DNA from: an uncultured virus (IMG/VR IMGVR_UViG_3300050821_024078)
Lineage: Duplodnaviria; Heunggongvirae; Uroviricota; Caudoviricetes
Strand: one strand, 5' to 3'
IMG/VR virus record: IMGVR_UViG_3300050821_024078
DNA: 64,000 bases
Each line of letters starts with the position of its first letter. The stretch's first letter is position 1. A program made the translations under genes and the position numbers. Of this stretch, positions 3,978 through 61,603 are shown in pieces. Below the pieces are notes generated by a model. That model had not been told where the DNA came from. It ran no database searches and saw nothing but the letters and a program-made list of their open reading frames with translations.

Positions 3978-4049
3978 GGACGCTTAGCTGAGAAGGATTA
4001 GCAAAAAGCTGTTAACTTTTAGAGGTTGGTTCGATACCAACAGCGTCCG
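3978..4049 (+). tRNA. tRNA-Asn (GTT)
   Basis: cloverleaf; AAAAG-CTGTTAA-CTTTT; no encoded CCA. Confidence 0.88.
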
Positions 4050-4114
4050 CAATAATTTTTACTATTTTTTAGCTCAAATACTGTATGAGCACACAATAAT
4101 TTCATATATAGATT

Positions 4115-13329: not shown

Positions 13330-14007
13330 ATGAAAGAAATAATTCTTGATAATATCAAATACAAGTTGGTTCCTGTTAGTCAGGAATCAGCTTTAATTCC
13401 TTTTGAAAAGGGTGACTGGGTTTGTAGTGATAACAATGAAATTAAATATACGAATAGATTCGGTGATATTGTTCCTATACCTAATGAGATAGATTACGTT
13501 TATACAAAAAACAATGCTGTTTATGTTAGTTATACAAAAGTATCCTCTCATGATTGGCATAGAATAGATGCTATAAGAAAAGCTTCTCATGATGAAATAT
13601 TAGACAGGCTTATACATAGACATTGTAATTTCAAAGAAGGTGATACGGTTTGGTTTAAAGATAAAGGTGTAAGAAAAGAATGTGGTACACGGAAATACTT
13701 AGTCTTAGGGTTTGAATTATGTGTAATTGGAGATATCATAATTGATGATTATATAACTGTTCATCTTAAATATAGTTGTAAACCGGGCTCAGAAACATCT
13801 TATCTTAGTTGTGAGTTAACCAAATATGATGAATCTGTTAAGTCTGCCACTGATAATAATCAAAAAAGAACAATTATCTTAGATGGTATTAAATATAAAT
13901 GGCTCTACTTCATAAATTGGTGCAAATGCTACACAATAGCTATCTGTTTAGATGAAATTAAATACCTAATAATCATTTTATTATATATAATCTGCACCAA
14001 CTTATGA
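13330..14007 (+). CDS. hypothetical protein whose C-terminus is altered by a MITE insertion
   Basis: removing 13901-14024 restores ...IILDGIKYKLEEIQ*. Confidence 0.65.
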   Translation: MKEIILDNIKYKLVPVSQESALIPFEKGDWVCSDNNEIKYTNRFGDIVPIPNEIDYVYTKNNAVYVSYTKVSSHDWHRIDAIRKASHDEILDRLIHRHCNFKEGDTVWFKDKGVRKECGTRKYLVLGFELCVIGDIIIDDYITVHLKYSCKPGSETSYLSCELTKYDESVKSATDNNQKRTIILDGIKYKWLYFINWCKCYTIAICLDEIKYLIIILLYIICTNL

Positions 14008-14016
14008 AGTAGAGCC
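13901..14016. mobile_element. 116-bp MITE, IS1595-family-like
   Basis: 27-bp terminal inverted repeats (GGCTCTACTTCATAAATTGGTGCAAAT, 2 mismatches); 8-bp direct repeat ATATAAAT at 13893-13900 and 14017-14024. Confidence 0.85.
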
Positions 14017-14043
14017 ATATAAATTAGAAGAAATTCAATAATT

Positions 14044-16187: not shown

Positions 16188-16411
16188 TATTTTTATGGTA
16201 CTAAAACTTTACTAGTATCAAACGATTTTCCTCTTCTTTCATTTAAATCACTATCAGTTAATATTCTTCCTTTAACATTTTCTAATAATGTTTTTGTGTT
16301 AATGAGTTTTCCATCAGAGGCAAAGGCCCAGTTTAATCGTTCACCTTTTGATTTTTTAGTTCTGGTATTCATAGTTTATATAAAATTCTTTGTGGTGACT
16401 GATGTTATGTA

Positions 16412-19562: not shown

Positions 19563-20156
19563 ATGACAAAAACGAGAAAAAGATTTGATAATGAAAAGAG
19601 ATCCCGATATTATGGAATTCGTGTTGGTGATACTATAACAGTAAAATATTCAGCTGATGAAAATTTGAATGGACTTGTTGTTGAGTATGGTTTTATGGAT
19701 AATAATAGAGTTATAGTCCAATTTGATGGTAGTAAAGAGTATGACAGTTGTGTTGCTGAGTATTGCAAAATAGTTGTTCCTGTGGAAGATAAACCACATT
19801 CAGTATGTGCTTTCATTCGTAACAAAGAAACCGGATTGTTTCTTGGTGTCTCAAGAAAATACGATCCAAATGACTTTGGTTTTTGTGGTGGTAAAGTTGA
19901 TCCAGGAGAAACCCCTGAAGAAGCAATGGTTCGTGAGGCTAAAGAAGAGACCGGTTTAGATATCGTAATCATTGAAGAGATTCATACTGAATTCTATGGC
20001 GGTTATAATACTCACTGTTATATAGCTGATTACTCTGGAGAATTTTCTTATGATAAAGAGAAAGAAACCGGTAGAGTTGCTTGGGTTACAAAACAAGATT
20101 TACTTGATGGTTGTTTTGGTGATTATAATGCTGGAATATTTTCTTTACTCTATTAG
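19563..20156 (+). CDS. Nudix hydrolase with an N-terminal extra domain
   Basis: Nudix box GGKVDPGETPEEAMVREAKEETGL. Confidence 0.9.
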   Translation: MTKTRKRFDNEKRSRYYGIRVGDTITVKYSADENLNGLVVEYGFMDNNRVIVQFDGSKEYDSCVAEYCKIVVPVEDKPHSVCAFIRNKETGLFLGVSRKYDPNDFGFCGGKVDPGETPEEAMVREAKEETGLDIVIIEEIHTEFYGGYNTHCYIADYSGEFSYDKEKETGRVAWVTKQDLLDGCFGDYNAGIFSLLY

Positions 20157-22843: not shown

Positions 22844-24274
22844 ATGAAAATATTTTTAACTTCAACTTTGCCTTATAATAATTCTCAAATTCATGTAGGA
22901 ATGGGTTTAGAGATAGTTCAGGCTGATTCAATAACCAGATATTTAAAACAAAAAGGTTATGATGTGTTTTTTAATACTGGTTTAGATGAAGAGGGATTAA
23001 AGATTTATCAGAAAGCAAAATCTTTAGGAAAGGATACTCAAACTTTTTTGGATGAAATGGCTGAAACATGGGTTGAAGCTTTTAAAAAATTATTGATAGA
23101 TTATGATGTTTTATATAGGACATCAAATCATCCTAAACATGCTGATGGTGTTCAAAAATTCTGGAAGTTATGCGAGGATAAAGGATACATTTATAAGAAA
23201 TTATATAAAGGAAAATATTGTTCTGGATGTGAATCATACAAAACTGACCAAGATCTTATTGAAGGGAAATGTTTGGATCATTTTACTCTTGATATAAATG
23301 AAGTAGAAGAAGAAAATTATTTTTTTCGTCTAACTTCTTTTAAGGAAGCATTATTTGAAGATATTAATAATTCTAAAATTAAGTTACAACCACAATCAAA
23401 AATGACAGAACTTATATCTTTGATTGAAAATTGTAGTGATGTATCTATATCAAGACTTAGAAGCCAATTACCCTGCGGTGTTGAGGTTCCTGATGATCCA
23501 GAACATACTGTTTATGTTTGGTTTAGTGCCTTGTGTAATTATTTTATAAGTGCTGGTTGGCCAGATGATAATTTTAAAGATAATTGGCAAAATGTTATAC
23601 AGTTATTTGGTAATGATAATTTAAGATTTCAAGGTGTTTTATTTCAGGCTATGCTTAAAGCTGCTGATATTCCTTGTACATCAAAGCTTTTAATGCATGG
23701 TACTGTATTAGATGAAAAAGGACATAAAATGTCTAAAACTGTAGGTAATGTAGTTGATCCAATTATAGAGATTGAAAAATATGGTTTGAGAGCTGTTAGA
23801 TACTATATTTTGGCTGGTTTAAATACTTATCAAAATAGTCCGTGGTCAAGTAGTGATTTAATTACTTTACATAATTCGGATCTGGCTAATGATTATGGTA
23901 ATCTCCTCTCCAGGGTAATTCATCTTTTAGATAAACAAGATATTGTAATTAATGAATCTATAGTACAAGAATCATTTAAGAAAAACATTTTAAATATTGT
24001 TGATGAATCTACTGAGTTATTTGATAATTTTGAGTTAAAACAAGGTTTACAAAAATTGAATCAAGTATTCAAATACTCAAACAAATATATCACACAAGAA
24101 GAGCCATGGAAGAATAAAGAAACGGCTCCAGTAGTTGTAAATAATTTGGTATGGGTTTTCAGAAGAGTAGCTGAATTATATGAGCCTTTCATTCCAGGTG
24201 TTTGGGTTGATACTTGTGTATGGATAGCACAGAAAAACAAAGAACCTTTATTTCCTAGGATACAAACATTATAA
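22844..24274 (+). CDS. metG: methionyl-tRNA synthetase (divergent)
   Basis: HVGM (HIGH), TGLDEEG, YCSGCESY, EEENYFFRL, VYVWF, KMSKT, LANDYGNL, EPWK. Confidence 0.88.
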   Translation: MKIFLTSTLPYNNSQIHVGMGLEIVQADSITRYLKQKGYDVFFNTGLDEEGLKIYQKAKSLGKDTQTFLDEMAETWVEAFKKLLIDYDVLYRTSNHPKHADGVQKFWKLCEDKGYIYKKLYKGKYCSGCESYKTDQDLIEGKCLDHFTLDINEVEEENYFFRLTSFKEALFEDINNSKIKLQPQSKMTELISLIENCSDVSISRLRSQLPCGVEVPDDPEHTVYVWFSALCNYFISAGWPDDNFKDNWQNVIQLFGNDNLRFQGVLFQAMLKAADIPCTSKLLMHGTVLDEKGHKMSKTVGNVVDPIIEIEKYGLRAVRYYILAGLNTYQNSPWSSSDLITLHNSDLANDYGNLLSRVIHLLDKQDIVINESIVQESFKKNILNIVDESTELFDNFELKQGLQKLNQVFKYSNKYITQEEPWKNKETAPVVVNNLVWVFRRVAELYEPFIPGVWVDTCVWIAQKNKEPLFPRIQTL

Positions 24275-26341: not shown

Positions 26342-26878
26342 ATGAAAAAGTTTTTCTTTGCTGTAAATAATGATAAATCAGAAATAATTGAATCAGAAAC
26401 ATATCCTATTATGTTGTCTCAAGGTGGCGAATGGACGAGTTGTACTTCTGGTTATAACTCAAAAGAAGAATTAATTGAGAAATGTGGTATACCGGAAACG
26501 CCTTGTGTCGAGTGTGGAAACATTTTTAGTACAAATTATCATGACAATGAAAAGATGATTGAACGCAACATGTGTTTTAGCTGTAATCTTTGGACTGACC
26601 GAATATCAGCAGCATCTAAACTAAATGTCATGATTGTTAATCATTCGATGTATACTATGGGGACTGAAACTAATGAAATATTTAAATACCGTGGGTTTGG
26701 TGGTCGTAAGTTTGAATTTATTAAAGATAATGTAAGATATGAATCAACTAATGTTTGGTTTGGTGGTAAAGTCCCTGTACATTTTAGAGATAGAATTAAA
26801 GATAATGCTATAATAGATGATGGTAGAAAATCAGTTGCTATAAATGATGCTATAACTAAACTACGTAACGATCTCTAA
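26342..26878 (+). CDS. hypothetical phage protein with CxxC pairs
   Basis: CVECG, CFSC, GFGGRKF, STNVWFGG. Confidence 0.65.
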   Translation: MKKFFFAVNNDKSEIIESETYPIMLSQGGEWTSCTSGYNSKEELIEKCGIPETPCVECGNIFSTNYHDNEKMIERNMCFSCNLWTDRISAASKLNVMIVNHSMYTMGTETNEIFKYRGFGGRKFEFIKDNVRYESTNVWFGGKVPVHFRDRIKDNAIIDDGRKSVAINDAITKLRNDL

Positions 26879-31919: not shown

Positions 31920-33470
31920 TTAATTCCCCACCACTGATTTAAAAGCATCAAGAATACGTTCCTTCAAATCTTCTTTACTAAGTGTATCAAAAATGTTATG
32001 TAACTCAGGACCATGTTCTTCACCTGTTACTATATATCGCAAAGGTTTTAAAACTTGTCCATTTTTTAGACCTTTTGTTTTTATTAAAGCAAAAAGTTTA
32101 TCCTTAATTTGAAATCCGTTATCTTCGGAATCAATGATATTAGGAAATTCTAATATTACTGCTACAATTTCTTCTGGAACTAAATTAACAGTGTCTTGTA
32201 TCATTACTGGTTTTATGAAGAAGAAATCTATATTTTCCAAAAGCTCTCTTTCGAAAGAAGATCTTTCATAAGCCATTTCAAATACTTTTCTCGCTTTATT
32301 ACTAAGAGCCGGCTCAATATCTCTATCAATCAAAGATTTATTTAAAGTAATAAAGAATCTTTCGTAAAGTTCTTCTTTATCTTGAGCTTTAAAATAAATA
32401 TTCTGGAAATGCTTCAGTTTTACCGGATCGAATAAACAGCCTGATTTGTTTACTTTCTCTAGGCTGAATTTTTCAATAATTTCTTCTCTACACATAATCT
32501 CTTTGGTGTCTCCAGGACTCCATCCCATTAAGGCCAAGAAGTTGAACAAAGTATCTGGATTATAACCAACATCTTTAAACCCGGTTACAGATTCTTCAAT
32601 GCCAGTATCTGGATTTGTATAAGTATAGCTTAGAGGGAATATGGGAAACCCTAATGTATTACCGTCCCTTTTACTTAGTTTACCATTAGGACCCATTAGA
32701 AGAGGTAAATGAGCAAATTCTGGCATACTATCTGACCATCCGAGATATTTGTAGAGTAATATATGAAAAGGTGCTGATGGTGCCCACTCTTGGCCCCTTA
32801 TAACATGAGTTATCCCCATCAAATGATCATCAACGACATTTGCTAAGTGATAGGCTGGCATACCATCGGATTTCATCAATACTTTATCATCGATATCTTT
32901 GGATTCAACCATAATCCAACCTAGAATAAGATCATGAAAGCGAATTTCTTCTTTTTCCGGAACTTTGAGTCTTATAACATAAGGATCCTTCGCTTCTAGT
33001 TTTCTTGTAACTTCACTGGCTGGTAATGTGAGAGAATTCATCATTACCTTCCTTGTGTTACAGTTATATCCTTCTTTTGATTTCATGAGTTCTTGTCTCT
33101 TTCTCATCAAATTAAGATCGCTTTCTGTATCAAAAGCATAATATGCATAACCAGCATCAAGAAGTTGTTGTACATACTCTTTGTAAATACCAAGTTCCTT
33201 TCTTGCTGACTGTCTGTATGGTCCACAATTACCAGGATTAAGTGGATGTTCATCAGGTTCTATACCCAACCAGTATAAAGATCTCATAATATAATCTTCT
33301 GCACCTGGAACGAAACGTTTCTGATCGGTATCTTCTATTCTAAGAATGAATTTACCACCATGTTTTTTAGCGAACAAATAATTGAATAAGGCTGTCCTGA
33401 GACCTCCGCAATGTTGAGATCCAGTTGGGCTGGGTGCGTATCTTACACGAATAATCTTTGTGTCTTTCAT
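31920..33470 (-). CDS. gltX: glutamyl-tRNA synthetase
   Basis: RYAPSPTG, LRIEDTDQ, GPYRQS, YHLANVVDDHLMGITHVIRGQEW, KLSKR. Confidence 0.95.
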   Translation of the reverse strand: MKDTKIIRVRYAPSPTGSQHCGGLRTALFNYLFAKKHGGKFILRIEDTDQKRFVPGAEDYIMRSLYWLGIEPDEHPLNPGNCGPYRQSARKELGIYKEYVQQLLDAGYAYYAFDTESDLNLMRKRQELMKSKEGYNCNTRKVMMNSLTLPASEVTRKLEAKDPYVIRLKVPEKEEIRFHDLILGWIMVESKDIDDKVLMKSDGMPAYHLANVVDDHLMGITHVIRGQEWAPSAPFHILLYKYLGWSDSMPEFAHLPLLMGPNGKLSKRDGNTLGFPIFPLSYTYTNPDTGIEESVTGFKDVGYNPDTLFNFLALMGWSPGDTKEIMCREEIIEKFSLEKVNKSGCLFDPVKLKHFQNIYFKAQDKEELYERFFITLNKSLIDRDIEPALSNKARKVFEMAYERSSFERELLENIDFFFIKPVMIQDTVNLVPEEIVAVILEFPNIIDSEDNGFQIKDKLFALIKTKGLKNGQVLKPLRYIVTGEEHGPELHNIFDTLSKEDLKERILDAFKSVVGN

Positions 33471-33917: not shown

Positions 33918-34463
33918 TTATAAAGTTTTTGAAACTATATCTGATATTTCTGAGATGAATTTATCTGAATCAAATTTACCTTGTCTTATTGATTTTAATA
34001 CTTCAGCTCTTTTGGTTTTATTGATTCTTTTAGAATCCATACTTAAAATTATTTGATACGCTGTAGCATTTTTAGCTGTATTACTTCTAAGATCAAGTGA
34101 TTTTTGAATTCCCTGATCTATCATTAAACGAAAATAACCTAATGAACTTTTGCATTTTGTTGGATTACAGTTTGTCCAAATAGTTTCAATGTATTCTAAA
34201 GTTTCTTCAGCGACAGCTTTTGTGTCAAAATTTGCTCTGTTACCAGAATTATATTTTTTTACTTCTAAATGATATGAAATAACTTTTTTGAGTGCTCTAA
34301 GAAAGCCAGGTGTTATTACTTTTGCTTTACAGGATTTAAGATGTTCTTCAGTAAAATGTTTGGTTTTAACATTTAAAATTGGTATTTCACCAAACCCATA
34401 TTTACTAATATGGGAAGTTGATGTATTCCGTAATGTTACATTAATTGTTGTGTTATTTTCCAT
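33918..34463 (-). CDS. hypothetical protein
   Basis: ORF. Confidence 0.6.
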   Translation of the reverse strand: MENNTTINVTLRNTSTSHISKYGFGEIPILNVKTKHFTEEHLKSCKAKVITPGFLRALKKVISYHLEVKKYNSGNRANFDTKAVAEETLEYIETIWTNCNPTKCKSSLGYFRLMIDQGIQKSLDLRSNTAKNATAYQIILSMDSKRINKTKRAEVLKSIRQGKFDSDKFISEISDIVSKTL

Positions 34464-41228: not shown

Positions 41229-41456
41229 ATGACTAAATTAGAGCGTATACAGGAAAAATATGATAACATTTCAATTATATTTGCTACTGAGTATGAACAG
41301 GTTTCTGCTATTATACATCAGGGTGATTTTTCAAAAAATCTTGATATAGCCATAATGAGAAGAAGAGCAACTACTAAAGCTCTTAGATGTTTGTTAAAAA
41401 TGATACAGATAGAAAAAGAAAGAACCGCTAATTTTAGTATTTCTACTTCTAATTAA
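41229..41456 (+). CDS. hypothetical protein
   Basis: ORF after an AATATATAG motif. Confidence 0.5.
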   Translation: MTKLERIQEKYDNISIIFATEYEQVSAIIHQGDFSKNLDIAIMRRRATTKALRCLLKMIQIEKERTANFSISTSN

Positions 41457-41467
41457 CGGTTCTTTTG

Positions 41468-41867
41468 TGGAGCTGTCGGGGATCGAACCCGAGTGTTTGG
41501 TCAGCGAGTATACATCTTACTACAAGTTTATTTGATTCTGAATTATAGACATTTTGAAATAAAGAATCAACAAAAAATTTCTAGTGTCTTTTAATCAATA
41601 TTTTAAGAACTTGCTGCAACTTAGTTGCGTTGTTCTCCCGGAATTAATCAATGGACCGGTTGCGTGCTTAAGAGTTGACTCCTGTATAATTGAGATTGAC
41701 TAAGCAGCCATTTCCATCTCAACAGAAGCAGGAAACAATTCAGCGAGAACTGAATCCTGAAGGGCTTTTTTATTGCCGATTATTGTTTGATAAGACATTT
41801 AATGGGGTCTTAACAGCCCATACTTGCAAATATACACAGTAGCAGCCAGTCTATGCCGGTCAGCCCC
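41468..41867 (-). ncRNA. ssrA: tmRNA; tag GNKKALQDSVLAELFPASVEMEMAA at 41777-41700
   Basis: 5' GGGGCTGACCGGCATAGAC; 3' GGGTTCGATCCCCGACAGCTCCA; tag ORF ends AA*. Confidence 0.93.
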
Positions 41868-44818: not shown

Positions 44819-46243
44819 ATGAACTTAAAAAGCATTATAGAGAAAATACCAGTGATTATGCAGCTGGCTGAATACGTTCAAAAGGAAAACATACAAGCTT
44901 ATGTTGTGGGTGGTTTTGTGCGTGATTCTATCTTGGAAAAACAATCCAAAGATATTGATATAGTTTGTATTGGTTCCGGATTAGAACTTGCTGAAGGTTT
45001 CGCTAAATATATTGGTCAGACCGAAGGTGTAGAATACTTCAAGAATTTTGGTACAGCACATTTTATGAGTGATGATGTTGAATTGGAATTTGTGGGAGCC
45101 AGAAAAGAATCATATGATAGAGGTTCAAGAAAACCCATTGTTGAGGATGGTACACTAGAAGATGACCTTAATCGTCGTGATCTGACATTTAATGCTATGG
45201 CTATTTCCTTAAGTGCTGATACATTTGGTGATTTAATTGATATGTTTGATGGTTTATCAGATCTGAAGAACGGTATTATAAGAACACCACTAGATCCTGA
45301 TATAACATTTTCAGATGATCCTTTAAGAATGTTGAGAGCTGTGAGATTTTATTCCAGGTTTAGTTTAACTATCCATGATGAAACTTTAGCATCTATAATT
45401 AAAAATCGTAGCAGACTTGAAATTATTTCTCAACAAAGGATTCATGATGAGCTGAACAAAATATTACTAACAAAGAAACCGAGTATAGGTTTTTATATGT
45501 TGGATCAATGTGGATTACTTGAAATGATTATTCCTGAACTCACAGCTCTTAAAGGTGTAACAAGAGTTAACGATAAAGGTCACAAAGATAATTTCAAACA
45601 TACCCTACAAGTACTGGATCAGGCTGCTGAAGTAAGTGACAATCTTTGGTTTAGATGGGCTGCACTTCTCCATGATGTAGGTAAAGGTCCTACAAAGAGA
45701 CTACTTGATAATGGATGGTCTTTTCATGGTCACGAAGATGTTGGGTTTGGCATGGTTCGAGAAATATTCAAAAGATTATGTTTACCGCTTAGTGAAAAAC
45801 TTATCTATATTCAAACAATAACAAAATACCATGGTAAACCGCAACAACTAGTTGAAGAAGGTGTGACAGATTCAGCTATACGCCGGTTATGTGTAAACGT
45901 TGGAAATACCCTTGATGATCTTTTACTATTTTGTAAATGCGATATTACTACTGCTAGAGAAGATAAAAAATTAAAGTATGTCCAAGAGATAGAAGACCTT
46001 CGAATTAAAATTGAAGCTGTTCGTGAAAGAGACAATATGCTCAATTTTAAAGTTCCTGTAGAAGGTGGTGATATAATGGCGGAATATAAATTAAAGCCGT
46101 GCGAGCTTGTTGGTGTGATTAAAAAAGCTATAAAGGAAGCAATACTTGAAGGTGTCATTCCTAATGATCGGGAAGCAGCTTTAGAATTTATGCGAAGTAA
46201 TTATGAAAAAATAAAAGAAGAGCTAGAAAACAGAGTAGATTAG
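44819..46243 (+). CDS. cca: CCA-adding tRNA nucleotidyltransferase with HD domain
   Basis: VGGFVRD, KDIDI, RRDLTFNA, DDPLRMLRAVRF, LLHDVGK. Confidence 0.92.
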   Translation: MNLKSIIEKIPVIMQLAEYVQKENIQAYVVGGFVRDSILEKQSKDIDIVCIGSGLELAEGFAKYIGQTEGVEYFKNFGTAHFMSDDVELEFVGARKESYDRGSRKPIVEDGTLEDDLNRRDLTFNAMAISLSADTFGDLIDMFDGLSDLKNGIIRTPLDPDITFSDDPLRMLRAVRFYSRFSLTIHDETLASIIKNRSRLEIISQQRIHDELNKILLTKKPSIGFYMLDQCGLLEMIIPELTALKGVTRVNDKGHKDNFKHTLQVLDQAAEVSDNLWFRWAALLHDVGKGPTKRLLDNGWSFHGHEDVGFGMVREIFKRLCLPLSEKLIYIQTITKYHGKPQQLVEEGVTDSAIRRLCVNVGNTLDDLLLFCKCDITTAREDKKLKYVQEIEDLRIKIEAVRERDNMLNFKVPVEGGDIMAEYKLKPCELVGVIKKAIKEAILEGVIPNDREAALEFMRSNYEKIKEELENRVD

Positions 46244-47159: not shown

Positions 47160-49475
47160 TTAATTTAGTATTTTTTCTTTTTTTCCTGAAGTATCCTTTT
47201 TATCAAACCATATCTTCAAATTTTCTTTTGCTTCTTTATCTGGGTTTATAATTACCATATAAGGATTAGATAATATAGTTTCATATTCATCATCCAATAG
47301 AGATGCCAGACCTTTTTTATATTCAATATCCCAGGTACTAACTTTTTCTTTTTTACTCCAAGCTTCATAATCTTCATTTGTATAAAAGAATTTCTTTTCT
47401 TTACCTTTTTTTGCAACAAGTAAAGGTGTCATAACTTTACATATTCTCTTCTGTTCAAATAATTCTGGCCAGTATGTATAGAAGAAATTTAGTAGCAGAG
47501 CTGATATAGCATCACCATCACAATTGTGTGATAAGATAGAATGATTAATACCATTAATGAAGAATGTATTATCATCTTCTACTTCAATATCATAAAATTC
47601 TTCTTCTTTTATGGTGTTAATATTTGTTATTGAGTCTGCTGGTTTGAAAATAAATTCAGAATTATTGTTATTATCTTTTAAATAAAGAAAATCTGTATAG
47701 AGTAATTCACCAGCAGCTATATCTATAGCTTTATTATCTCTTATTACAGGTATTTTATGTTTTTGAGAGCAATAGAATATGTTTCCTAAGATTTGTATTT
47801 TTATGTATTCTGTCTTATATGATTGAATAATACATTTAACTTTTTTATACTGTCCTGTATGAGTTAAAACATAATCTGTAGGTAATACATCTTGTATTTC
47901 TTTAATACCATCTTTACATATTATTTCAGTATCATATCTTAAGCAATCAGCATCTGTATAAATTAACAATCTAGCATACTGTAAAGCTTTAAGATCAACT
48001 CGTTCACCCAAACTTAGACCAATACTTGATATAAGATTTCGTGCCTCTTCATTCTCAAGAATAGCTTTTGGTGTAATTTCGGAAACATTAATAAATTTAC
48101 CCCGGAGAGGGAAGGCCCCAAAAATATTTTGATCACGAAACTGGCGAACCGCACTTATGGCTGAGTCTCCCTCAAAAATACCTAAAACGCATTTTGTGCG
48201 GTCATGACCTTTAGCCTCAATAAGTTTAGCGACCTTTTCTTTCTTTGAATTTTTATTAAATCTCTTGAGTGCTTGAAGTTCTTTTAATTCTATTTGTTCC
48301 AGTATAGCTCTAACGATATCTGATTTCATAATTTTCTTTAAAAGTAATTCTGAAACTTTGCTATCTTTTAATATATCTTTAGTAATAGGGTTGGTCATAT
48401 AATTTTTTGTCTGAGTATCAAATGTTGGATTTGCTATTTTGCAAATTAAGAACAAAAACAATTTATTTTTAACATCTACCCAAGTAACTTTATTCTTCTT
48501 ACTACTTATCATTTCTGCAAGTTCTTTAGATATTTCTAAAGATATATGATTTACACCTGTACCACCTCTATAAGTAGTTATACCATTAACTATACTAACT
48601 TGCTCAAAAGATTCGGATTGAGAACTAGCTACACCAACTTCCCATTCATTATTTAATTTTTCATAAAATAATTCAGTATTTTCAGGTAAATGCATAGCCA
48701 TATAATCCATCATAGTTTTTATAGGAAATGTTTCATCATTAAATGATACTTTAGCTTTAGGGCAATAACAAGCAACATCTAAAGTTCTTTTAGCTAAAAT
48801 TTTAATTACATCTTCAGTAAATCCATCCATACCAAATCTTTTAAAATCTGGATAGTATGTTATTTTGGTATAATTTTTATCACATGATGAAATTTTAGGC
48901 TTACTGTTTTTATCTATAAATTTTTTAAAATCATTATCTGAAATTTTATGATATAAATTATCTTTTACAATTTGTATATACTTATTTTTACCATCAGAAG
49001 TTTCTAAAATAAATTGATTTGATAGAATTGCCACAGCCTTCCCACCAATTCCATTACGTCCAGCACCAAATCTTTCTTCTTCATCATTAAAATTTGATGA
49101 TGCTAGTAAATTAAAAAATAAAAGTTCTGGAAGCCACATGGATTCTTTTTTATGTATTTGTACTGGTATCCCAGGACCATCATTTTCAATAGTTATTGAT
49201 TCTTTATCTAAAGAAACTTTAATATATTTAACTTTACCTGTTCTAATATAGTGATCCGATGCGTTAGTTATAATTTCATCAAAAATTTTTATGAAAGCTG
49301 GTACATATTTTACCAATTCTTTTTTTATTTTAACATCTGATAATTTTTCAATATCTTCAACTACAAACATTTTTTCTTCTATTTCATTCATAGAACCTAC
49401 ATATGTATCAGGTCTTAATAAGACATGCTCACGTTGAGACAATTTTTGATAAATATCTTCAATTTTTTTAGTCAT
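47160..49475 (-). CDS. type II DNA topoisomerase large subunit (gp39+gp60/GyrB-like), intein-containing
   Basis: EHVLLRPDTYVGS, DEIITNA, NDGPGIP, GRNGIG, EGDSA, PLRGK, YKKGL. Confidence 0.94.
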   Translation of the reverse strand: MTKKIEDIYQKLSQREHVLLRPDTYVGSMNEIEEKMFVVEDIEKLSDVKIKKELVKYVPAFIKIFDEIITNASDHYIRTGKVKYIKVSLDKESITIENDGPGIPVQIHKKESMWLPELLFFNLLASSNFNDEEERFGAGRNGIGGKAVAILSNQFILETSDGKNKYIQIVKDNLYHKISDNDFKKFIDKNSKPKISSCDKNYTKITYYPDFKRFGMDGFTEDVIKILAKRTLDVACYCPKAKVSFNDETFPIKTMMDYMAMHLPENTELFYEKLNNEWEVGVASSQSESFEQVSIVNGITTYRGGTGVNHISLEISKELAEMISSKKNKVTWVDVKNKLFLFLICKIANPTFDTQTKNYMTNPITKDILKDSKVSELLLKKIMKSDIVRAILEQIELKELQALKRFNKNSKKEKVAKLIEAKGHDRTKCVLGIFEGDSAISAVRQFRDQNIFGAFPLRGKFINVSEITPKAILENEEARNLISSIGLSLGERVDLKALQYARLLIYTDADCLRYDTEIICKDGIKEIQDVLPTDYVLTHTGQYKKVKCIIQSYKTEYIKIQILGNIFYCSQKHKIPVIRDNKAIDIAAGELLYTDFLYLKDNNNNSEFIFKPADSITNINTIKEEEFYDIEVEDDNTFFINGINHSILSHNCDGDAISALLLNFFYTYWPELFEQKRICKVMTPLLVAKKGKEKKFFYTNEDYEAWSKKEKVSTWDIEYKKGLASLLDDEYETILSNPYMVIINPDKEAKENLKIWFDKKDTSGKKEKILN
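47523..47945 (-). mobile_element. mini-intein (141 aa, no endonuclease domain)
   Basis: YTDAD|CLRYDT...YDIEVEDDNTFFING...LSHN|CDGD; block B-like SQKHKI. Confidence 0.9.
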
Positions 49476-49610: not shown

Positions 49611-49703
49611 ATCCATGTATAATACAGAAATTTTTAAAGAAAAAGCATTCAAAATCCATGTATAATACAGAAATTTTTAAAGAAAAAGCATTCAAAATCC
49701 ATG
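49611..49703 (+). repeat. 43-bp tandem duplication over the start of an endonuclease gene
   Basis: ATCCATGTATAATACAGAAATTTTTAAAGAAAAAGCATTCAAA twice, then ATCCATG. Confidence 0.9.
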
Positions 49704-50926
49704 GTGATAAATATGATTATTCAATGGTTAATTACATAAATTCTAAAACTAGTGTTGAAATTTTTTGTAAAAAACATAATATTTTCTTTGAACAAAAACC
49801 AATATATCATTTAAGAGGTGCTTTATGTAAAAAATGTGGTTACGATAAACAAAAATCAACAACATCAGATTTTATAATAAAGGCAAGAAAAGTTCATGGT
49901 GACATTTATGATTATTCATTAGTTAATTATTATGATACTTTAACTAAAGTTAAAATTGTATGTAAAGAACATGGTGAATTCGAACAAAAACCACTAGGAC
50001 ATTTATATGGACAGGGATGTGCAAAATGTTTTCACGATACAATAAGATTATCAAAAGAAGAATGTATAATAAATTCTAAAAAAGTACACGGAGAAAAATA
50101 TGATTATTCATTAGTCGAGTATATTGATAATCTTACCAAAATTAAAATAATATGTCCAGAACATGGTATATTCGAACAACAACCATCAAATCACATGGAA
50201 GGTAATGGTTGTATCAAATGTAGACATCAAAGCCGAAGAAACAACTCATATATCAAAAAATGTAATGAAAAATTTAACAATAAATATGATTACTCTTTAG
50301 TTGATTATGTTAATAATAATACTAGAGTTGATATTATTTGTCCTGAACATGGAATATTTAAACAATCTATGAAGAGTCATTTAAAACATGATGGTTGTCC
50401 TTTTTGTTCTGGTAAAAAAATGAATACTGAATTTTTTATTTTAAATTCTAGTAAAAAACATAATAATTATTTTGATTACTCATTAGTTGAATATACTGGA
50501 GCATTTAAGAAGGTTAAAATTAAATGTCCTGAACATGGTTTATTCGAACAAATGCCTTCCACACATTTATTTGGAGCTGGTTGTCCTGTATGTAAATCTT
50601 CCAAAGGCGAAAAATCTATAATTTCTTTTTTGAATGAAAATAATATAGAATATAAACATCAGTATGCATTCGAAAAATGTAAAAATATTAATGTATTATT
50701 CTTTGATTTTTATATACCAGATAGAAATATGTGTATTGAATATAACGGTATGCAACATTATAAAAAAATAGAATATTTTGGTGGTGATAAAGGTTTCAAA
50801 ATTACTAAAAAAAGAGATAATATAAAAAAAGCTTTTTGTAAAAAAAATAAAATTTCATTAAAAATAATAACTTATAAAGATAATATTTTAGAAAAATTAA
50901 ATAAAATATTCAAAAGCAACATTTAA
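49658..50926 (+). CDS. putative homing endonuclease: about 5 repeats (KYDYSLVEY...ICPEHGxFEQ...GCxxC) plus a C-terminal PD-(D/E)xK/Vsr-like domain
   Basis: repeats visible; SKGE...FDFYIP...IEYNGMQHY...RDNIK. Confidence 0.82.
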   Translation: MYNTEIFKEKAFKIHGDKYDYSMVNYINSKTSVEIFCKKHNIFFEQKPIYHLRGALCKKCGYDKQKSTTSDFIIKARKVHGDIYDYSLVNYYDTLTKVKIVCKEHGEFEQKPLGHLYGQGCAKCFHDTIRLSKEECIINSKKVHGEKYDYSLVEYIDNLTKIKIICPEHGIFEQQPSNHMEGNGCIKCRHQSRRNNSYIKKCNEKFNNKYDYSLVDYVNNNTRVDIICPEHGIFKQSMKSHLKHDGCPFCSGKKMNTEFFILNSSKKHNNYFDYSLVEYTGAFKKVKIKCPEHGLFEQMPSTHLFGAGCPVCKSSKGEKSIISFLNENNIEYKHQYAFEKCKNINVLFFDFYIPDRNMCIEYNGMQHYKKIEYFGGDKGFKITKKRDNIKKAFCKKNKISLKIITYKDNILEKLNKIFKSNI

Positions 50927-50973: not shown

Positions 50974-51831
50974 ATGAACAGGTATACCGTTTTAAAATTC
51001 AATGATTATTTGATCCAGGAAGGTCTTGCTGAAGATATTGCTGGTTTAGCCGGTATTTCTGATAGTTCTAGTGGTCAAGCTGAACCAAATAAAATTGTAA
51101 CAGCTCTTAAGGGGATTCGTGTAGGCGAGAAAAACAAACAAGTTGAAGAAATTCAAACCATATTAAAATCTTTTGGTTGTGATGTTAATGTAACAGGTAC
51201 TTTAGATTCTAAAAACATTGAACAAATAAGATCTGTTATTTTTGTTGCTAAAAATGATCCAGAATTAAAATCTCTTATACCAGCCAGTTTAGAGGTTGAT
51301 TCCAATATTCTTACCGATGATGTACAAAATACTATTAGACAATTATCAACAAGCAGTAATGCTAAAGATATCATTAAGGAAAAAGTAAATAAGGTCAAAC
51401 CTCAAGATTATTCGGTTGAAAAGACAAATAAATCTGATGATGCCTTCTACCATAAGTTACTTAAACTATTAAAGGCACCTGTTTCCGAAGAAAATATGAG
51501 GTTCTTTTATGCCTGGAGACAAGCAGAAGCGGGTAAAGCCACAAACAATCCTTTCAATACAACTTTCAATCTTAAAAAAGATCCAGATATGACAGCATAC
51601 AATAAAGCTGGTGTTAAGAATTACTCAAGACCAGAATATGGTTTAGAGGCCACTTACAGAACACTTATGCTTTCATACTACAAAGACATCGTTGCTGGTC
51701 TAAGAAATGATATAGGAGCCTCTAATCTGGCAAAATGTGAGTCATTAAACACTTGGGGTACCGGATCACTTGTATCTTCTGTTATTAATAAACACAAAAC
51801 GTTAAATCCACCAGGAATAGAGGCTGCTTAG
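50974..51831 (+). CDS. putative peptidoglycan-binding / lysozyme-like hydrolase
   Basis: N-terminal PG-binding-like VEEIQTILKSFG; C-terminal AWRQAE...NNPFNTT...GVKNY...GLEAT. Confidence 0.5.
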   Translation: MNRYTVLKFNDYLIQEGLAEDIAGLAGISDSSSGQAEPNKIVTALKGIRVGEKNKQVEEIQTILKSFGCDVNVTGTLDSKNIEQIRSVIFVAKNDPELKSLIPASLEVDSNILTDDVQNTIRQLSTSSNAKDIIKEKVNKVKPQDYSVEKTNKSDDAFYHKLLKLLKAPVSEENMRFFYAWRQAEAGKATNNPFNTTFNLKKDPDMTAYNKAGVKNYSRPEYGLEATYRTLMLSYYKDIVAGLRNDIGASNLAKCESLNTWGTGSLVSSVINKHKTLNPPGIEAA

Positions 51832-51832
51832 T

Positions 51833-52519
51833 TTATTTTCTATGCCAGTAAATATGATTATCTGATAACGCATCACCCCAATTGATGTAACCATCATTTG
51901 TTTCTTCGGTATCATACATTTCATCCATTTTAAGATCTTCTGTATCATCGTTTGAATGATTCTTCTTACGTCTTCTATATTCTTTCCACCAATCTTCTTG
52001 ATTTATACCAGCTGTATAATCTGGAATAATTGCTATCTCCCAGGTGCTTTGTTTTACTTTAACAGTAGCCGGTAATCCATACCAACATATTTTTCTACCA
52101 TTTTCTTTTTCTGGTTCGAAGAAATTATATGAATGTTCACTCAGTATAATTTGAAGATATTGTATTTTAGCGAATGCAAAAGATGCCTCAAATGTACCAA
52201 AAGCATATATGAGTTTTCCGTTACACCACATTTCAACATTTGTCCCAGTACTAAAACGAGTTTCATCCCATTTATATTTGGAAGAATTATATTGAGTTAT
52301 TCGTATATCCCAAAGTCTTCTGTTTATACTTCTCGAAAATGGTACAAAATCGGGTGAATCAGCAGGTGGTATCAAATCCTCTTGAAGTTTAGTAGCATAA
52401 TAGAGCCACCAGGTTTTTGGTATATCACCATAACCCTCATGTTCTTTTCCTTCTATATCATAAACTACATACTGTTTGTTATGAACTGTGACTTCGAATA
52501 TTTTTCGTGGTATTTGCAT
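51833..52519 (-). CDS. hypothetical protein
   Basis: ORF, 228 aa. Confidence 0.7.
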   Translation of the reverse strand: MQIPRKIFEVTVHNKQYVVYDIEGKEHEGYGDIPKTWWLYYATKLQEDLIPPADSPDFVPFSRSINRRLWDIRITQYNSSKYKWDETRFSTGTNVEMWCNGKLIYAFGTFEASFAFAKIQYLQIILSEHSYNFFEPEKENGRKICWYGLPATVKVKQSTWEIAIIPDYTAGINQEDWWKEYRRRKKNHSNDDTEDLKMDEMYDTEETNDGYINWGDALSDNHIYWHRK

Positions 52520-52521
52520 GG

Positions 52522-52812
52522 CTATTTGTTAAGTAGTTCTTGGATTGCTTTATTTAATTCTGAATCTTTTTCTTCAGCTAATTTTTGTGTGTCAATACCG
52601 AAATATTCTGTGAGTAGTTGAATATGTGATTCAGGTATAAATTCGAGTGTTTCTCGTTCTTTCAGACCTTTAGTCGTTTGATACTCTTCCTTATCTATAC
52701 TTGCAATTGTATAGTTTTTCTTATTTGATAACCAATCAAGAAATTTTTTTACTGTTTCAAACTTTTCTTGTAGTTGGCTTGCTTTATCTAATTCTGTTGT
52801 ATCTGATTTCAT
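52522..52812 (-). CDS. hypothetical protein
   Basis: ORF. Confidence 0.65.
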   Translation of the reverse strand: MKSDTTELDKASQLQEKFETVKKFLDWLSNKKNYTIASIDKEEYQTTKGLKERETLEFIPESHIQLLTEYFGIDTQKLAEEKDSELNKAIQELLNK

Positions 52813-52864
52813 AATTTTAGTATGTTTACTGTTACTTTACTTCTAATTGTACATACGCCTCTGC

Positions 52865-53232
52865 GGTGTTTCAGGTCTCCAATTGAGATGCTTCAACATC
52901 ACATCCTGTCCGTATTTGTCTTTGGATGTAAGGTGTTTCAGGTCTCCAATTGAGATGCTTCAACATCAATCGAATCATTTTCAAAGGCGATCTGCTAGGT
53001 GTTTCAGGTCTCCAATTGAGATGCTTCAACATCCACATCCATGTGTTGACTCTCCGGTAACAAGGTGTTTCAGGTCTCCAATTGAGATGCTTCAACATCT
53101 TGGATCTATCCCTGATTTACCATGTACATGGTGTTTCAGGTCTCCAATTGAGATGCTTCAACATCTTTGTTCGGGAGTAATAACAAGTGTACCTTCGGTG
53201 TTTCAGGTCTCCAATTGAGATGCTTCAACATC
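52865..53232 (+). CRISPR. orphan CRISPR array: 6 identical 36-nt repeats GGTGTTTCAGGTCTCCAATTGAGATGCTTCAACATC and 5 spacers (31, 30, 30, 30, 31 nt); type VI-B-like
   Basis: repeats start at 52865, 52932, 52998, 53064, 53130, 53197; spacers are unique; hairpin repeat; strand inferred from G-U pairs; no cas gene seen in the window. Confidence 0.92.
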
Positions 53233-53447
53233 TGGTATGTTATAAACGATTGTGTTTCATAATATTGTATACCATATTTCTTCTCTAAAACTGACCAAAT
53301 AGAATCATAATCAACATCTAAACATATATTTTTTCTATTGTACATCACTACATACCCATCATTATCTTTAAAAACAATATTACCTGGATATTTTTTATCG
53401 ATTGAAATAGTAAGCTTACTTAACTCATTAAGGAAAAACTCTTCCAT
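53136..53447 (-). CDS. small protein whose 3' end runs through CRISPR repeat 6, spacer 5 and repeat 5
   Basis: ATG 1 nt after the upstream stop; ...QSFITYQ-MLKHLNWRPETP (repeat)-KVHLLLLPNK (spacer)-DVEASQLET*. Confidence 0.75.
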   Translation of the reverse strand: MEEFFLNELSKLTISIDKKYPGNIVFKDNDGYVVMYNRKNICLDVDYDSIWSVLEKKYGIQYYETQSFITYQMLKHLNWRPETPKVHLLLLPNKDVEASQLET

Positions 53448-53448
53448 A

Positions 53449-54456
53449 TTAAATGTTGTTTTTTACCCATCCTTCTTCCAGCCATTGTAGATAAGACAAT
53501 TCTGTTTTTGATTCAATATAACGTAGATATAGTTTATTCTCAACAAAGTCAAATCCGGCATCAATACATGATTGATAATTCATAGCCCAGATATCATACA
53601 AACCATCTTTAGGATAGAATCCTGATTCAAACCAGGTCTTTGTATATTCACCATTACTGTCAGCAACCCATATATTTCTAGCAACTGATTTATTGTAATC
53701 TTCGTATCCAGAAATATCAACGACAAATTTGTATGATATACTACCTTCATCATCTATATCATCTTCTTCGAAACTGATAATTTGTCCCTTCATATCTGGA
53801 TCAGCATCATACGAATGATTTTTGTTAAACTGTATAGTTGGTTTAACCCCAGCCTCTAATAATTTAATTAGTTCTTGAACTGTTGTATCTGATTTTTTGA
53901 TAGATTCTTCTTTCAAAGAAACTTTTATTAGTGGTTGATCGCTGTATTTTAATGGTAGTGAAGAATAGACATTCCAGCTGTCTTCACCGTTTATGTTATA
54001 TAATGCGTTTCCGATAATTTTATACATTTCATAACAAATCTGATCATCATTACATACATTTCCTATACCAAGATTACCTCCAGCAGCCCCACCACAAATA
54101 TTTATGTTGATATAGTCAAATAACGTTTTTAATTGTTCTTTCTTTGCAAAATATTCTTGCGAATATTGCTCTAAGTAATTATTATGAACCAAATTATTCA
54201 ATATACCATCAACAGCCTCATCCAGTTGTAAAGAATTGATCCTGGATAGAGTCTCAAGATAACGCCAAACTAAAATTAACTGTTTCTCATTTAGTTCAAT
54301 CAAATATTTTGTTTCATTTACAAGTTCTTTAGGTATATTTTTTATCGGGATACCTTCAATAAATGTATCATTATTGTTGAAAAGTTTAGCTTTTCCATTA
54401 CCTATTTTAATATAGTGAGTCGATGTAGGACCTGTATTTATTAATTCATTTTCCAT
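53449..54456 (-). CDS. hypothetical protein (no Cas motifs recognised)
   Basis: ORF, 335 aa. Confidence 0.7.
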   Translation of the reverse strand: MENELINTGPTSTHYIKIGNGKAKLFNNNDTFIEGIPIKNIPKELVNETKYLIELNEKQLILVWRYLETLSRINSLQLDEAVDGILNNLVHNNYLEQYSQEYFAKKEQLKTLFDYININICGGAAGGNLGIGNVCNDDQICYEMYKIIGNALYNINGEDSWNVYSSLPLKYSDQPLIKVSLKEESIKKSDTTVQELIKLLEAGVKPTIQFNKNHSYDADPDMKGQIISFEEDDIDDEGSISYKFVVDISGYEDYNKSVARNIWVADSNGEYTKTWFESGFYPKDGLYDIWAMNYQSCIDAGFDFVENKLYLRYIESKTELSYLQWLEEGWVKNNI

Positions 54457-54465
54457 ATCAATTTT

Positions 54466-54771
54466 TTAATTTAACCAAATAATTTCAGAACCTGTATCAT
54501 AACCAAATTTAAAATCATTAGCTATAGAGCAAATTTTACTTTTAGTTCTAAATACTTTATCTGATTCAACACAACTTTTAATATCTTCTAAGCTGGCTTT
54601 GCCTAAATCATGGCTATCACCATAAAATATAAATGAATTTTGTTCACGGTTAAATCTAAACCATCCACCCCCTTTAACTTTGGTTTTATCAGTAACAATA
54701 TTCATATGAAACGTTACTTTGCTTATGATTAACGCATCATCTTCAATTATAAATTTAGGAAATATGTCCAT
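54466..54771 (-). CDS. hypothetical phage protein
   Basis: PKFIIE...GGGWF...YGDSHDLG. Confidence 0.6.
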   Translation of the reverse strand: MDIFPKFIIEDDALIISKVTFHMNIVTDKTKVKGGGWFRFNREQNSFIFYGDSHDLGKASLEDIKSCVESDKVFRTKSKICSIANDFKFGYDTGSEIIWLN

Positions 54772-55324
54772 TTGTTCGTATAAATTCAGAAGGTACAAAT
54801 TTACTTAAATAAACATCATTAGAAGAAACAAAAAACTCTATACCATCATCATGTGCTTTTTTAGCATCAATGCTTAATATACGTATATCTTCACTCTTTC
54901 GTTTACCAACTTTTATTGCTGTTTCTTTATCCTTTGATAAATGTACATGAATTCTTGACATGGGCTTTAATCCATCTTTAAGAATCTGTTTAACTGTATC
55001 CAAAGCTGTACCATGGTATAATTTTTCCGGTGGAATAACCAATTTAACTTCGGAATCAACTTCAACAGAATGACCCTGGCAAGCTCTTACCTTTGTTTGA
55101 TCCAGATTATACTCGAATCTTTTTTTATTGTTAGTTTCAATTATCCAATCAAGACCATCTTTACCTTGTGGTATACTTAATTTTTCAATAAGAGTAACAA
55201 CATCAACAAAACCATTTTTATCTAAAGTTATTCCAGCGTGCTCTGGTTCATGTCTTAATATTTTAGACATATACCGGCTCTTGTCTTTAAGTAATTGAAA
55301 CTCTGTTTTTGTAAAGTCTGGCAT
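54755..55324 (-). CDS. kptA: RNA 2'-phosphotransferase (KptA/Tpt1)
   Basis: SKILRH, KKRF, RACQGHS, LYHGT, GLKPMSRIHVHLS. Confidence 0.93.
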   Translation of the reverse strand: MPDFTKTEFQLLKDKSRYMSKILRHEPEHAGITLDKNGFVDVVTLIEKLSIPQGKDGLDWIIETNNKKRFEYNLDQTKVRACQGHSVEVDSEVKLVIPPEKLYHGTALDTVKQILKDGLKPMSRIHVHLSKDKETAIKVGKRKSEDIRILSIDAKKAHDDGIEFFVSSNDVYLSKFVPSEFIRTNGHIS

Positions 55325-55569
55325 TATGATCTTTTTAAAATTTCTTGGTACCATTTGTATACAGCGGAAACATTAATTGAATCAAGTTGTTCAATAATAA
55401 TATCATCATTATAAATTGATACATGAGAACTTCCTCTATTACCCCAGGTAAATATTAAAACTTCACGTTCAAATTTATATGTAACCTCATCATGCCAGGT
55501 GTATAAGATTTCTTTTAATTTCTGTATATCACTTCTAGTGAGATCTGTAATTTTTATAATCTTTTTCAT
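55324..55569 (-). CDS. hypothetical protein
   Basis: ORF. Confidence 0.55.
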   Translation of the reverse strand: MKKIIKITDLTRSDIQKLKEILYTWHDEVTYKFEREVLIFTWGNRGSSHVSIYNDDIIIEQLDSINVSAVYKWYQEILKRS

Positions 55570-60412: not shown

Positions 60413-61603
60413 TTATCTTAATGTTTTAGGATTAAGATTTGCAAGCAATTCAGATTTACCGGAGCTACCTTTTTCTAGTTTTTCAATAGCTTTAGCACCT
60501 ACTTCAGTAAGTCTAGCCATTTTATCCATATTATCTTTCATTTGTGGAAGAGCACTTCTACGGAATTCATCATAATCATTGATGGCTCCAATAGTATCAT
60601 CCCAAGCTTGTTGAAGAACATTGATATCAAGTGTAGTATTTACAGCTTGTTTTTGAATTTCACCACCTTGGATTCTTAGATTCTTGGCTGTTTCTGCAAT
60701 AAGACTATTCGTTGTTGCATTCAATTCGTTAATACAATCAAGAACCAATTTTTGTTTACCAAGTGATAAAGCAACAGTGATAGCAATTCTTAAAGCATGT
60801 ACAGTAGTACTTTTCGCTCTTTCAACACCACGAATAAGTTCTCTGTTATTACGAATTATCATTTCCATAGCTGCTATACCTTGCATAGTTACAACTAAAG
60901 TTTGTTGTAAATCATTTATACGTTGAACCAAAGGAAATATTAATTCATCAGCGATAAATTTTGATTTTTCTTCATCACCTTTAAAATCTCTTTCTAGTTT
61001 ATATTCTAGTTTCTGTTTAAGAACCATACCAAGCTTAACGGTTTCTCTTAACTCTTCCATGTCTTTTAACATGGTTTGCTTGTCCTGACTTAGTATGATA
61101 TTATCGTTTTGAAGTTTTCTTGAGCCTTCATCAAGAGAATCAATAATTTCTGAAATTACAGATTCGCTGGTTCTGTATTTGTCGAAATACCTCTGCATTT
61201 TATTTCCTACAAAAGGTAGCTTTTGTATAATTCTGGAGAAGAATGATCCTGGGTTATTTAAATCATAATGATTAGGATTCAAATCGTCAACACGATTCTT
61301 AAGATTTAATATAGTGTTTGCTATAGGTCCTCCGTCCTCACCTTTTTTGATAAGATCGTTAATAGGATCTTTAAGCATTTCGCTTTTATTTACGATTCTT
61401 CTTGCTACACCGGAACCCATTTGATCTATAGAAGCATTTCTTAAACTAGATTCTGTTTTTGGATCTAGTATGGCCTCCAAGAATTTATCTGCCTTCGCTT
61501 CTAATTCAGGATTTATTTGTGTAATATCTACTACATCGGTCAATTGTAAGTCCTGAATAACACTTTTTTCGGAACTTAGAATAGGTTTTGTTACTACTGT
61601 CAT
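60413..61603 (-). CDS. toxic anion resistance protein (TelA family)
   Basis: KLPFVG...YFDKY, LVQRINDL, NNRELIRGVERA. Confidence 0.85.
   Translation of the reverse strand: MTVVTKPILSSEKSVIQDLQLTDVVDITQINPELEAKADKFLEAILDPKTESSLRNASIDQMGSGVARRIVNKSEMLKDPINDLIKKGEDGGPIANTILNLKNRVDDLNPNHYDLNNPGSFFSRIIQKLPFVGNKMQRYFDKYRTSESVISEIIDSLDEGSRKLQNDNIILSQDKQTMLKDMEELRETVKLGMVLKQKLEYKLERDFKGDEEKSKFIADELIFPLVQRINDLQQTLVVTMQGIAAMEMIIRNNRELIRGVERAKSTTVHALRIAITVALSLGKQKLVLDCINELNATTNSLIAETAKNLRIQGGEIQKQAVNTTLDINVLQQAWDDTIGAINDYDEFRRSALPQMKDNMDKMARLTEVGAKAIEKLEKGSSGKSELLANLNPKTLR

Follow-up and report, generated by a model that had tools for sequence, protein, structure and literature searches.

CRISPR arrays are treated as non-coding: the leader is non-coding, and the repeats are constrained only as DNA and RNA. 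New arrays ("neo-CRISPR") can arise by off-target spacer integration at repeat-like sites. Small arrays without cas genes have been described in viral genomes, where they serve virus-virus conflicts (Medvedeva et al. 2019, PMC6858448; review PMC11656645). In the passages of PMC6858448 covered here, the mini-arrays of archaeal viruses carry one or two spacers that target co-occurring relatives, their repeats are host-like, and the arrays are intergenic with a promoter-containing leader. According to the parts covered of PMC10651486 and of the review PMC11656645, solitary viral repeat units act as RNA anti-CRISPRs, that is, as non-coding mimics of host repeats. Type VI-B (Cas13b) arrays, as presented in the covered text of Smargon et al. 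(bioRxiv 10.1101/092577), consist of 36-nt repeats and 30-nt spacers, with 5'-GUUG/CAAC-3' repeat ends and a poly-U loop, and the loci lack Cas1 and Cas2.

The locus analyzed here lies in a phage sequence of 64,000 nt (the whole stretch is called the window). It has in common with the viral mini-arrays, as far as the passages of PMC6858448 portray them, that a virus carries an array without cas genes, that spacers change from one close strain to another, that a related virus of the same sample is matched by a spacer, and that targets lie near arrays. It differs from the mini-arrays of those passages in that a coding gene occupies the leader position, repeat 1 being the last 12 codons of this gene, and in that five spacers are present. 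No host array with its repeat was found, whereas the repeats of the mini-arrays are host-like. Moreover, unlike in those arrays, the repeats co-diverge with the gene across about 540 proteins, and the spacers are open in the frame of the gene. With the RNA anti-CRISPRs, as described in the parts covered, the locus shares the single repeat-like tail that some paralogues keep, but the repeat of the present family is coding, and spacers are present in most of its copies. An off-target birth of the array would explain why the repeat belongs to an ordinary gene and is not equal to a host repeat; such births are, however, sporadic accidents, whereas the present arrangement is ancient, family-wide and multi-copy. 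The layout was not found in the literature searched, which included passages of two papers on viral arrays. Within that literature, a repeat that doubles as a conserved protein segment and an array that is kept translatable appear to be undescribed.

Phage context of the window

The G+C content of the 64-kb window is about 30%. Its genes include those for T4-type topoisomerase II subunits, a CCA-adding enzyme, Tpt1, RtcB, an RF-1-domain protein and two aminoacyl-tRNA synthetase-like proteins, together with homing endonuclease-like ORFs, three tRNAs and a tmRNA. A T4-type portal, major capsid protein and terminase were found in related records. We read the window as part of a huge T4-like phage. 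BACON and Por_Secre_tail domains are encoded by one of the related records (G002), from which a host among the Bacteroidota is probable. One contig, L001, proved to be the window itself (1 mismatch in 20,364). When the window was compared by blastn with three related phage records (G001, G002 and G003), the gene-array module was nearly the sole stretch that aligned, and a blastn search of positions 51800-55400 against 50,697 GenBank phage records gave zero matches.

The tmRNA gene was located at 41465-41867 on the minus strand (Rfam, 81.5 bits), and the genes for tRNA-Phe, tRNA-Lys and tRNA-Asn form a cluster at 3796-4050 on the plus strand. Near the tRNA and tmRNA genes are found those for the MetRS-like (22844-24274), Glu/GlnRS-like (31920-33470) and RF-1-domain (8715-9113) proteins, and also RtcB (1565-2977), the CCA-adding enzyme (44819-46243) and Tpt1 (54755-55354). 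The large subunit of topoisomerase II (47160-49475, minus strand) exceeds its PHROG profile by about 110 aa, and its residues 544-651 gave a weak intein-splicing match (E 5e-4, below Pfam's cut-off). Three internal direct repeats of 186 nt, 75-77% identical, are contained in an HNH/homing endonuclease-like ORF (49658-50926, plus strand). Two short islands of high identity were also observed. Positions 13917-14017 (101 nt) are 99% identical to G002 1605-1705, in phages that align almost nowhere else; on both sides of this stretch the window has an inverted repeat (about 25 nt), and a small RNA, a mobile mini-element and a regulatory site are possible identities for it. The second island, of 41 nt, shows 97.6% identity between window positions 34406-34446 and G001 102276-102316 in diverged surroundings.

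Anatomy of the array and adjoining genes

Six identical 36-nt repeats (100% identity; GATGTTGAAGCATCTCAATTGGAGACCTGAAACACC in gene orientation) occupy positions 52865-53232, separated by mutually unrelated spacers of 31, 30, 30, 30 and 31 nt, counted from the gene outward. The array and its adjoining genes are all on the minus strand. Upstream lies an ORF of 335 aa (53449..54456) with no Pfam or PHROG match, which ends with a TAA at 53451-53449. The small gene starts 1 nt past this codon (ATG, 53447-53445), so that the layout of translational coupling given in the original prediction was confirmed. The gene encodes an 84-aa domain of a new family (53196..53447). Its codons 1-72 form the body, which stands in the leader position, while codons 73-84, MLKHLNWRPETP, cover repeat 1 and one further base, the first of spacer 1.

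Repeat 1, the gene-proximal one (53197..53232, 36 nt), makes up the last 12 codons of the gene; since it lies within the gene, this side of the array has no non-coding leader, as had been claimed. Spacer 1 (53166..53196) has 31 nt and shifts the frame, and the mechanical ORF (53136..53447, 103 aa) runs through it to a stop inside repeat 2 (53130..53165). The predicted course of the gene, into the nearest repeat, across a spacer and to a stop in the next repeat, therefore holds in all its parts. Spacer 2 (53100..53129, 30 nt) contains a stop in the repeat frame. It is followed by repeat 3 (53064..53099), where an in-frame ATG opens an ORF of 75 aa (52871..53098), spacer 3 (53034..53063, 30 nt), repeat 4 (52998..53033), spacer 4 (52968..52997, 30 nt), repeat 5 (52932..52967), spacer 5 (52901..52931, 31 nt) and the gene-distal repeat 6 (52865..52900), which in this array is non-degenerate. 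A gap of 52 nt leads to the next co-directional gene (52522..52812, 96 aa), whose product has a weak PHROG match of unknown function. The array thus sits within a minus-strand gene run.

A search of positions 52780-53480 against Rfam, permissive thresholds included, detected no CRISPR repeat family and gave two chance-level matches alone. Inspection by eye revealed two mutually exclusive 4-bp stems in the repeat, which favor opposite strands. Among the three main repeat variants, a single change of compensatory or wobble type was seen in each stem, and both are disrupted in the repeat of a G001 paralogue; the stems are not taken as evidence.

Gene family and the gene-repeat junction

A word-based protein search retrieved two relatives with 59% identity, both with MLKHLNWRPETP at the C-terminus. 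Beyond the window, 7 more copies of the gene were found in the three related records (two in G001, three in G002 and two in G003). The junction is the same in 8 of the 8 copies, the tail being either the first repeat or an array remnant. Solitary repeat-like tails are present at G003 41401-41436 and G002 26349-26384. One paralogue of G001 carries the variant tail LWKHLKWKVKTP, and its own array repeats precisely that variant.

A profile of the 8 copies matched 540 proteins (E <= 1e-3) among 1.84 billion representatives. Of the 540, the 150 matches listed were examined together with proteins from other searches, 157 in all, and in 151 of these the domain reaches the end of the profile (165 domain instances). 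At least 16 residues extend beyond the 12-residue tail in 81 instances. The tail is copied downstream (at least 60% identical) in 41 of the 81, after 10 further residues in 40 cases and after 9 in one. This fraction is a lower bound, because a spacer that is not 30 nt long hides the repeat from the test; the protein of the window is itself among the 40 scored as unduplicated. At the DNA level, 30 copies of the domain were found in the records, one of them cut by a contig end. The tail was located in 26, and the four copies with no Pro at the expected place were dropped, although those of L055 and of G408 at 199 kb do have arrays. Up to ten domains were counted in a single record (G408), and G409 has seven in 72 kb.

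Some individual copies deserve description. At G408 199289-199461, a tail that lacks the final Pro (LEELLKLQGYKT) heads an array of three repeats with 30-nt spacers, showing that this Pro is not required for an array. In L002 (9620-10240, at the start of the G003 contig) the domain lacks its own start codon and continues the reading frame of an upstream ORF; the fused ORF measures 207 aa from stop to stop, and the contig ends inside repeat 1. The metagenomic protein P0007 (760 aa) is encoded by a single ORF and consists of five tandem modules of domain and array, with 1-3 tail repeats per domain. No family member was detected by tblastn with P0001 and P0037 in the 50,697 GenBank phage records, nor with the family profile in a sample of 401 Bacteroidota genomes and in 4 others.

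Had an array landed at a gene end by chance, homologues without arrays and with unrelated C-termini would be expected, as the original prediction noted. The opposite was found: all homologues end in the repeat-encoded tail, and in 20 of the 26 located tails a further unit (at least 66% identity) follows. The proposed co-variation of repeat and gene was likewise observed, since the repeats co-diverge with the gene across the family, the LWKHLKWKVKTP paralogue being one example. The gene-array layout is real, conserved and old, and is not a chance insertion.

Coding nature and predicted fold of the small protein

Nei-Gojobori estimates for the core of the 8 copies ranged from 0.14 to 0.74 for pS and from 0.09 to 0.36 for pN, with pS > pN in 28 of 28 pairs; for the small gene of the window, the core values lie at 0.4-0.6 (pS) and 0.15-0.3 (pN). 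Among the five main-type copies, all differences in the 12 tail codons are synonymous save in the pairs with the solitary copy of G003, the tail of which has an M to F change. These patterns of substitution indicate that the small gene is a real coding sequence and that its core evolves as one.

The AlphaFold2 model obtained from an alignment of 126 sequences had a mean pLDDT of 94.2 and comprises a helix at residues 2-10, four strands, and helices at 47-58 and 62-77. The last helix enters residues 73-84, in agreement with the claim that a helix continues into the repeat-encoded part. Since it crosses into the tail, residues 73-84 belong, in the model, to the confidently predicted fold. The earlier suggestion that a coding sequence is the repeat fits these data: the tail is part of the predicted fold, its peptide is kept through synonymous changes, and it persists in array-less paralogues.

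Foldseek returned no match at E <= 0.001, either with a first model (8 sequences, pLDDT 67) or with the second (pLDDT 94). In a wide structural search the best Z was 3.7, which is no convincing match and does not by itself show the fold to be new, and the ESM Atlas gave scores up to 0.80 with unnamed clusters only. Pfam searches with 25 family members produced nothing consistent, and the window protein itself has no Pfam model. The family found no match in PHROG and no relative in a sequence-profile search of the PDB. In the source databases its members are named "hypothetical protein".

CRISPR-like behavior of the arrays

A total of 20 arrays with 59 spacers was counted in 8 records. The spacer length is 30 nt in 50 of the 59, and 29- and 31-nt spacers also occur. 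The best pair of spacers agrees at 17 of 30 positions, the same as in shuffles. Repeats are identical in the young arrays, namely those of the window, the main array of G002 and two in G408. Among the 16 arrays with at least three units, the last (gene-distal) unit stands alone as the one least similar to the first in nine, and two are uniform. The window array shows no terminal degeneracy, with 6 of 6 repeats identical, and its leader position is coding, not non-coding and AT-rich. Different sequence directly follows the tail in the near-identical genes P0027, P0153 and P0154 (one 90% cluster), and another near-identical pair differs by one internal unit. The earlier suggestion that the gene body serves as leader, with acquisition rewriting the protein tail, was thus supported in part: distal repeats degenerate and near-identical genes differ after the tail, but polarized acquisition as such was not observed.

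Exact matches to phage DNA (30/30), bounded exactly by the repeats, were obtained for 3 of the 59 spacers. Spacer 3 of the window matches G001 26400-26429, inside an ORF of 922 aa. In the single run that contains the window, this target was found on a contig together with 30+30 nt of G001 flanks; the depth of the target bin was 7.65 vs 11-12.5 beside the array of the window phage. The presence of the sequence with G001 flanks in the same run identifies the target as a co-occurring relative, for 1 of the window's 5 spacers. The other two matches are within the carriers' own records. A spacer of G002 (16254-16283) matches positions 19860-19889, and one of the G001 paralogue (60750-60779) matches 160706-160735, in a solute-binding/ion-channel gene 750 nt upstream of G001's main module, which is the target near an array referred to above. 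Matched spacers are read in a different frame from that of the source sequence. The derivation of spacers from the carrier's own genome was considered as a general rule and rejected, because the spacers tested from G408 (81% complete) show no self match.

The array matched the 50,697 GenBank phage records at E >= 1 only, and no common motif, such as a PAM, flanks the three protospacers. Among the spacers of the window clade, 7 of 16 start with TT, which is above the expectation from base composition and may be the trace of an acquisition motif. No RNA dataset is listed as containing the stretch, and in the sole DNA run the contigs are broken inside the array. At the level of sequence, the arrays behave like CRISPR arrays.

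The explanation towards which we lean, with somewhat more confidence than doubt, is that of a cas-less CRISPR-type array of a huge T4-like phage, attached directly to a small conserved gene of the phage at its 3' end. The array would be transcribed with the surrounding minus-strand gene run and be at least partly translated in the gene's frame. Adaptation machinery acting in trans, most likely the Cas1-Cas2 of the host, would write 30-nt spacers beside the gene, and each insertion would duplicate the tail-encoding repeat. Spacers would be drawn from related, co-occurring phages, and the guides would load a host effector, so that the array would serve phage-phage competition; the nearest repeat class is putatively type VI-B (Cas13b). 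One possibility is that translation spares a long untranslated stretch in the gene run from termination. We infer the inserter of the spacers, the production and use of guides, the processed strand and the reason for translation. The two spacers that match their own record in full speak against this explanation.

Frame openness and translation

In the frame of the gene and repeat, 52 of the 59 spacers are stop-free, compared with 33 and 29 of 59 in the other two frames (Fisher p 2e-6). Letter shuffles (n=2000) averaged 27.1 and never exceeded 38. The ORF of the gene reaches the last unit in 13 of the 20 arrays. When downstream repeats were compared with repeat 1, differences fell on codon positions in the proportion 52/37/81 (chi-square p 1.5e-4), with a pN/pS of 0.48 in frame vs 1.50 and 0.97 out of frame; repeat variation, for which a check of codon constraint had been proposed, is thus codon-like. 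This codon-like pattern can be accounted for even if the array is not translated, since every new repeat is a copy of the gene tail of its time. The openness of the spacers is not explicable by tail copying, and indicates that something selects for a translatable array; apparently, selection holds the arrays open in the gene's frame. In an ordinary CRISPR array, spacers would have no cause to be open in one frame, which counts against the explanation proposed above, as does the codon-like variation of repeats within arrays of G409, unlike that of an active array.

Another reading is that CRISPR-type integration writes protein. Each spacer captured beside the gene would then add a module of 22 residues (10 spacer-encoded ones and the 12-residue tail motif) to the C-terminus of the protein, with selection holding the modules in frame; the array would be at once a nucleic-acid memory and a hypervariable translated domain, and gene and array would make up one fused system. 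We hold this to be unlikely. A related version, to which we assign a similarly low probability, makes the array mainly a translated part of the protein, with a CRISPR-type integrase adding 22-residue modules that are kept in frame, and with a guide role that is secondary or lost. The stop-free spacers, the read-through to the last unit in 13 arrays and the repeat differences by codon position argue for it, and so do the 760-aa ORF of P0007 with its five modules and the place of the tail within a confident predicted fold. The window itself argues against: its frame is broken after one spacer, the ORF being hit by a 31-nt spacer and a stop, and the main array of G002 stops at spacer 2. The codon-like repeat pattern could merely record past states of the gene tail, and the protein has no Pfam, PDB or fold match. 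Every repeat of the window opens with an in-frame ATG, and the 75-aa ORF spans repeats 3-6 in the repeat frame.

Cas genes, host arrays and repeat class

No cas genes were found among the ORFs of the window or, in G001-G003, among the 62 ORFs with 350 aa or more. Cas1 was detected in 0 of 5 records, which are incomplete (14-81%), the control search being positive in 7 of 14 genomes, and Cas models had no match in 134 ORFs of the 81%-complete G408. An exact 32-mer of the repeat was absent both from 185,579 species genomes and from viral contigs (0 matches each). The degenerate repeat pattern gave 18 single matches, approximately the number expected by chance, and no array. That no host array with this repeat was found in the 185,579 genomes weighs against service by host enzymes as proposed in our preferred explanation.

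A scan of 401 Bacteroidota genomes for the 36+30 geometry revealed arrays in 4 and isolated matches in 2 more. The array of one genome (G330) adjoins Cas13b (E 4e-181) and Csx27, while two other arrays adjoin Cas9 and Cas1. Window-clade repeats are identical to those of G330 and G134 at 19-23 of 36 positions (19-22 for the Cas13b repeat of G330). In the controls, shuffled repeats reached at most 20/36 (99th percentile, 18), and two Cas9-linked type II repeats 14-20. Likeness to the repeat of the Cas13b locus is equal in both orientations (19/36 each way), so that the orientation is ambiguous.

With type VI-B arrays, as far as the covered text of Smargon et al. describes them, the locus shares the 66-nt unit of a 36-nt repeat and a 30-nt spacer and the lack of Cas1 and Cas2. 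Many family repeats have, like that of G330, a GTTG... end, and the Bacteroidota as host phylum fit the BACON and Por_Secre_tail domains of the phage. In contrast to the type VI-B repeats of that text, the window repeat has the ends GAUG...CACC around a center CUCAAUUGGAG, without the complementary 5'-GUUG/CAAC-3' ends and the poly-U loop; the candidate likeness is by repeat only. Given the equal orientations and the ...ACACC end, which departs from the signature, type VI-B (Cas13b) appears to be the nearest repeat class, by modest repeat similarity. The deviating end, the absent loop and the ambiguous orientation all count against the preferred explanation. So does the divergence of repeats within one phage: those of different arrays in G408 and in G409 differ at about one third of positions, which a single effector may not tolerate.

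The lack of a matching host array favors instead a counter-defense decoy, in which the gene end mimics the host's leader-repeat junction or repeat and absorbs spacer integration or the effector, the arrays being by-products. Inhibition of Cas proteins by solitary viral repeats has precedents, according to the parts covered of PMC10651486 and PMC11656645. The many copies per genome (10 in G408, 7 within 72 kb in G409), the solitary repeat of some copies (as in G003) and the divergence of repeats with each gene, instead of remaining host-like, also point in this direction. Nevertheless, we judge a decoy to be rather improbable. With phage DNA of the infected cell as the source, most spacers should match their carrier, yet none of those tested in G408 does, and spacer 3 of the window matches a different, co-occurring phage. 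Furthermore, frame openness is not predicted by a decoy.

Origin of the repeat units

Coding tandem repeats are often mistaken for CRISPR by array finders. The arrays could be non-CRISPR coding repeats of 12 conserved and 10 fast-evolving residues that expand by unequal recombination. The strict period of 66 nt (22 codons), the many arrays spanned by ORFs and the heterogeneous repeats of G409 with their synonymous differences would agree with this. In the window, however, six identical repeats separate five dissimilar spacers, which is evidence against tandem duplication because spacers would be copied along with the repeats if whole units were duplicated. In addition, three spacers reproduce distant phage sequence over exactly 30 nt, with the repeats as limits and in a reading frame other than that of the source, and the 29- and 31-nt spacers break the frame. 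Such an origin is therefore very unlikely in our view.

Pure chance, with an array that came to lie behind an unrelated gene or with 214 nt of plain leader that hold a spurious ORF, has nothing in its favor beyond the layout in one window and is barely credible, since the same junction recurs in 8 of 8 copies and family-wide, the core evolves as a coding sequence and the confident predicted fold includes the tail.

Significance

In contrast to the view of arrays as non-coding elements, this phage gene family shows the opposite arrangement: the repeat is a conserved piece of a predicted folded protein, a gene takes the place of the leader, the repeat drifts with that gene, and the spacers are translatable. 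Returning to the preferred explanation of a cas-less array built onto a phage gene, if host enzymes serve these arrays, repeats could vary far more than has been assumed and still be accepted in integration and guide loading, and many private arrays could be present in a phage. A large class would then escape array finders that reject repeats inside ORFs. If, on the other hand, translation is the point, the family would represent a new way to diversify a protein, or to express an array inside a gene run.
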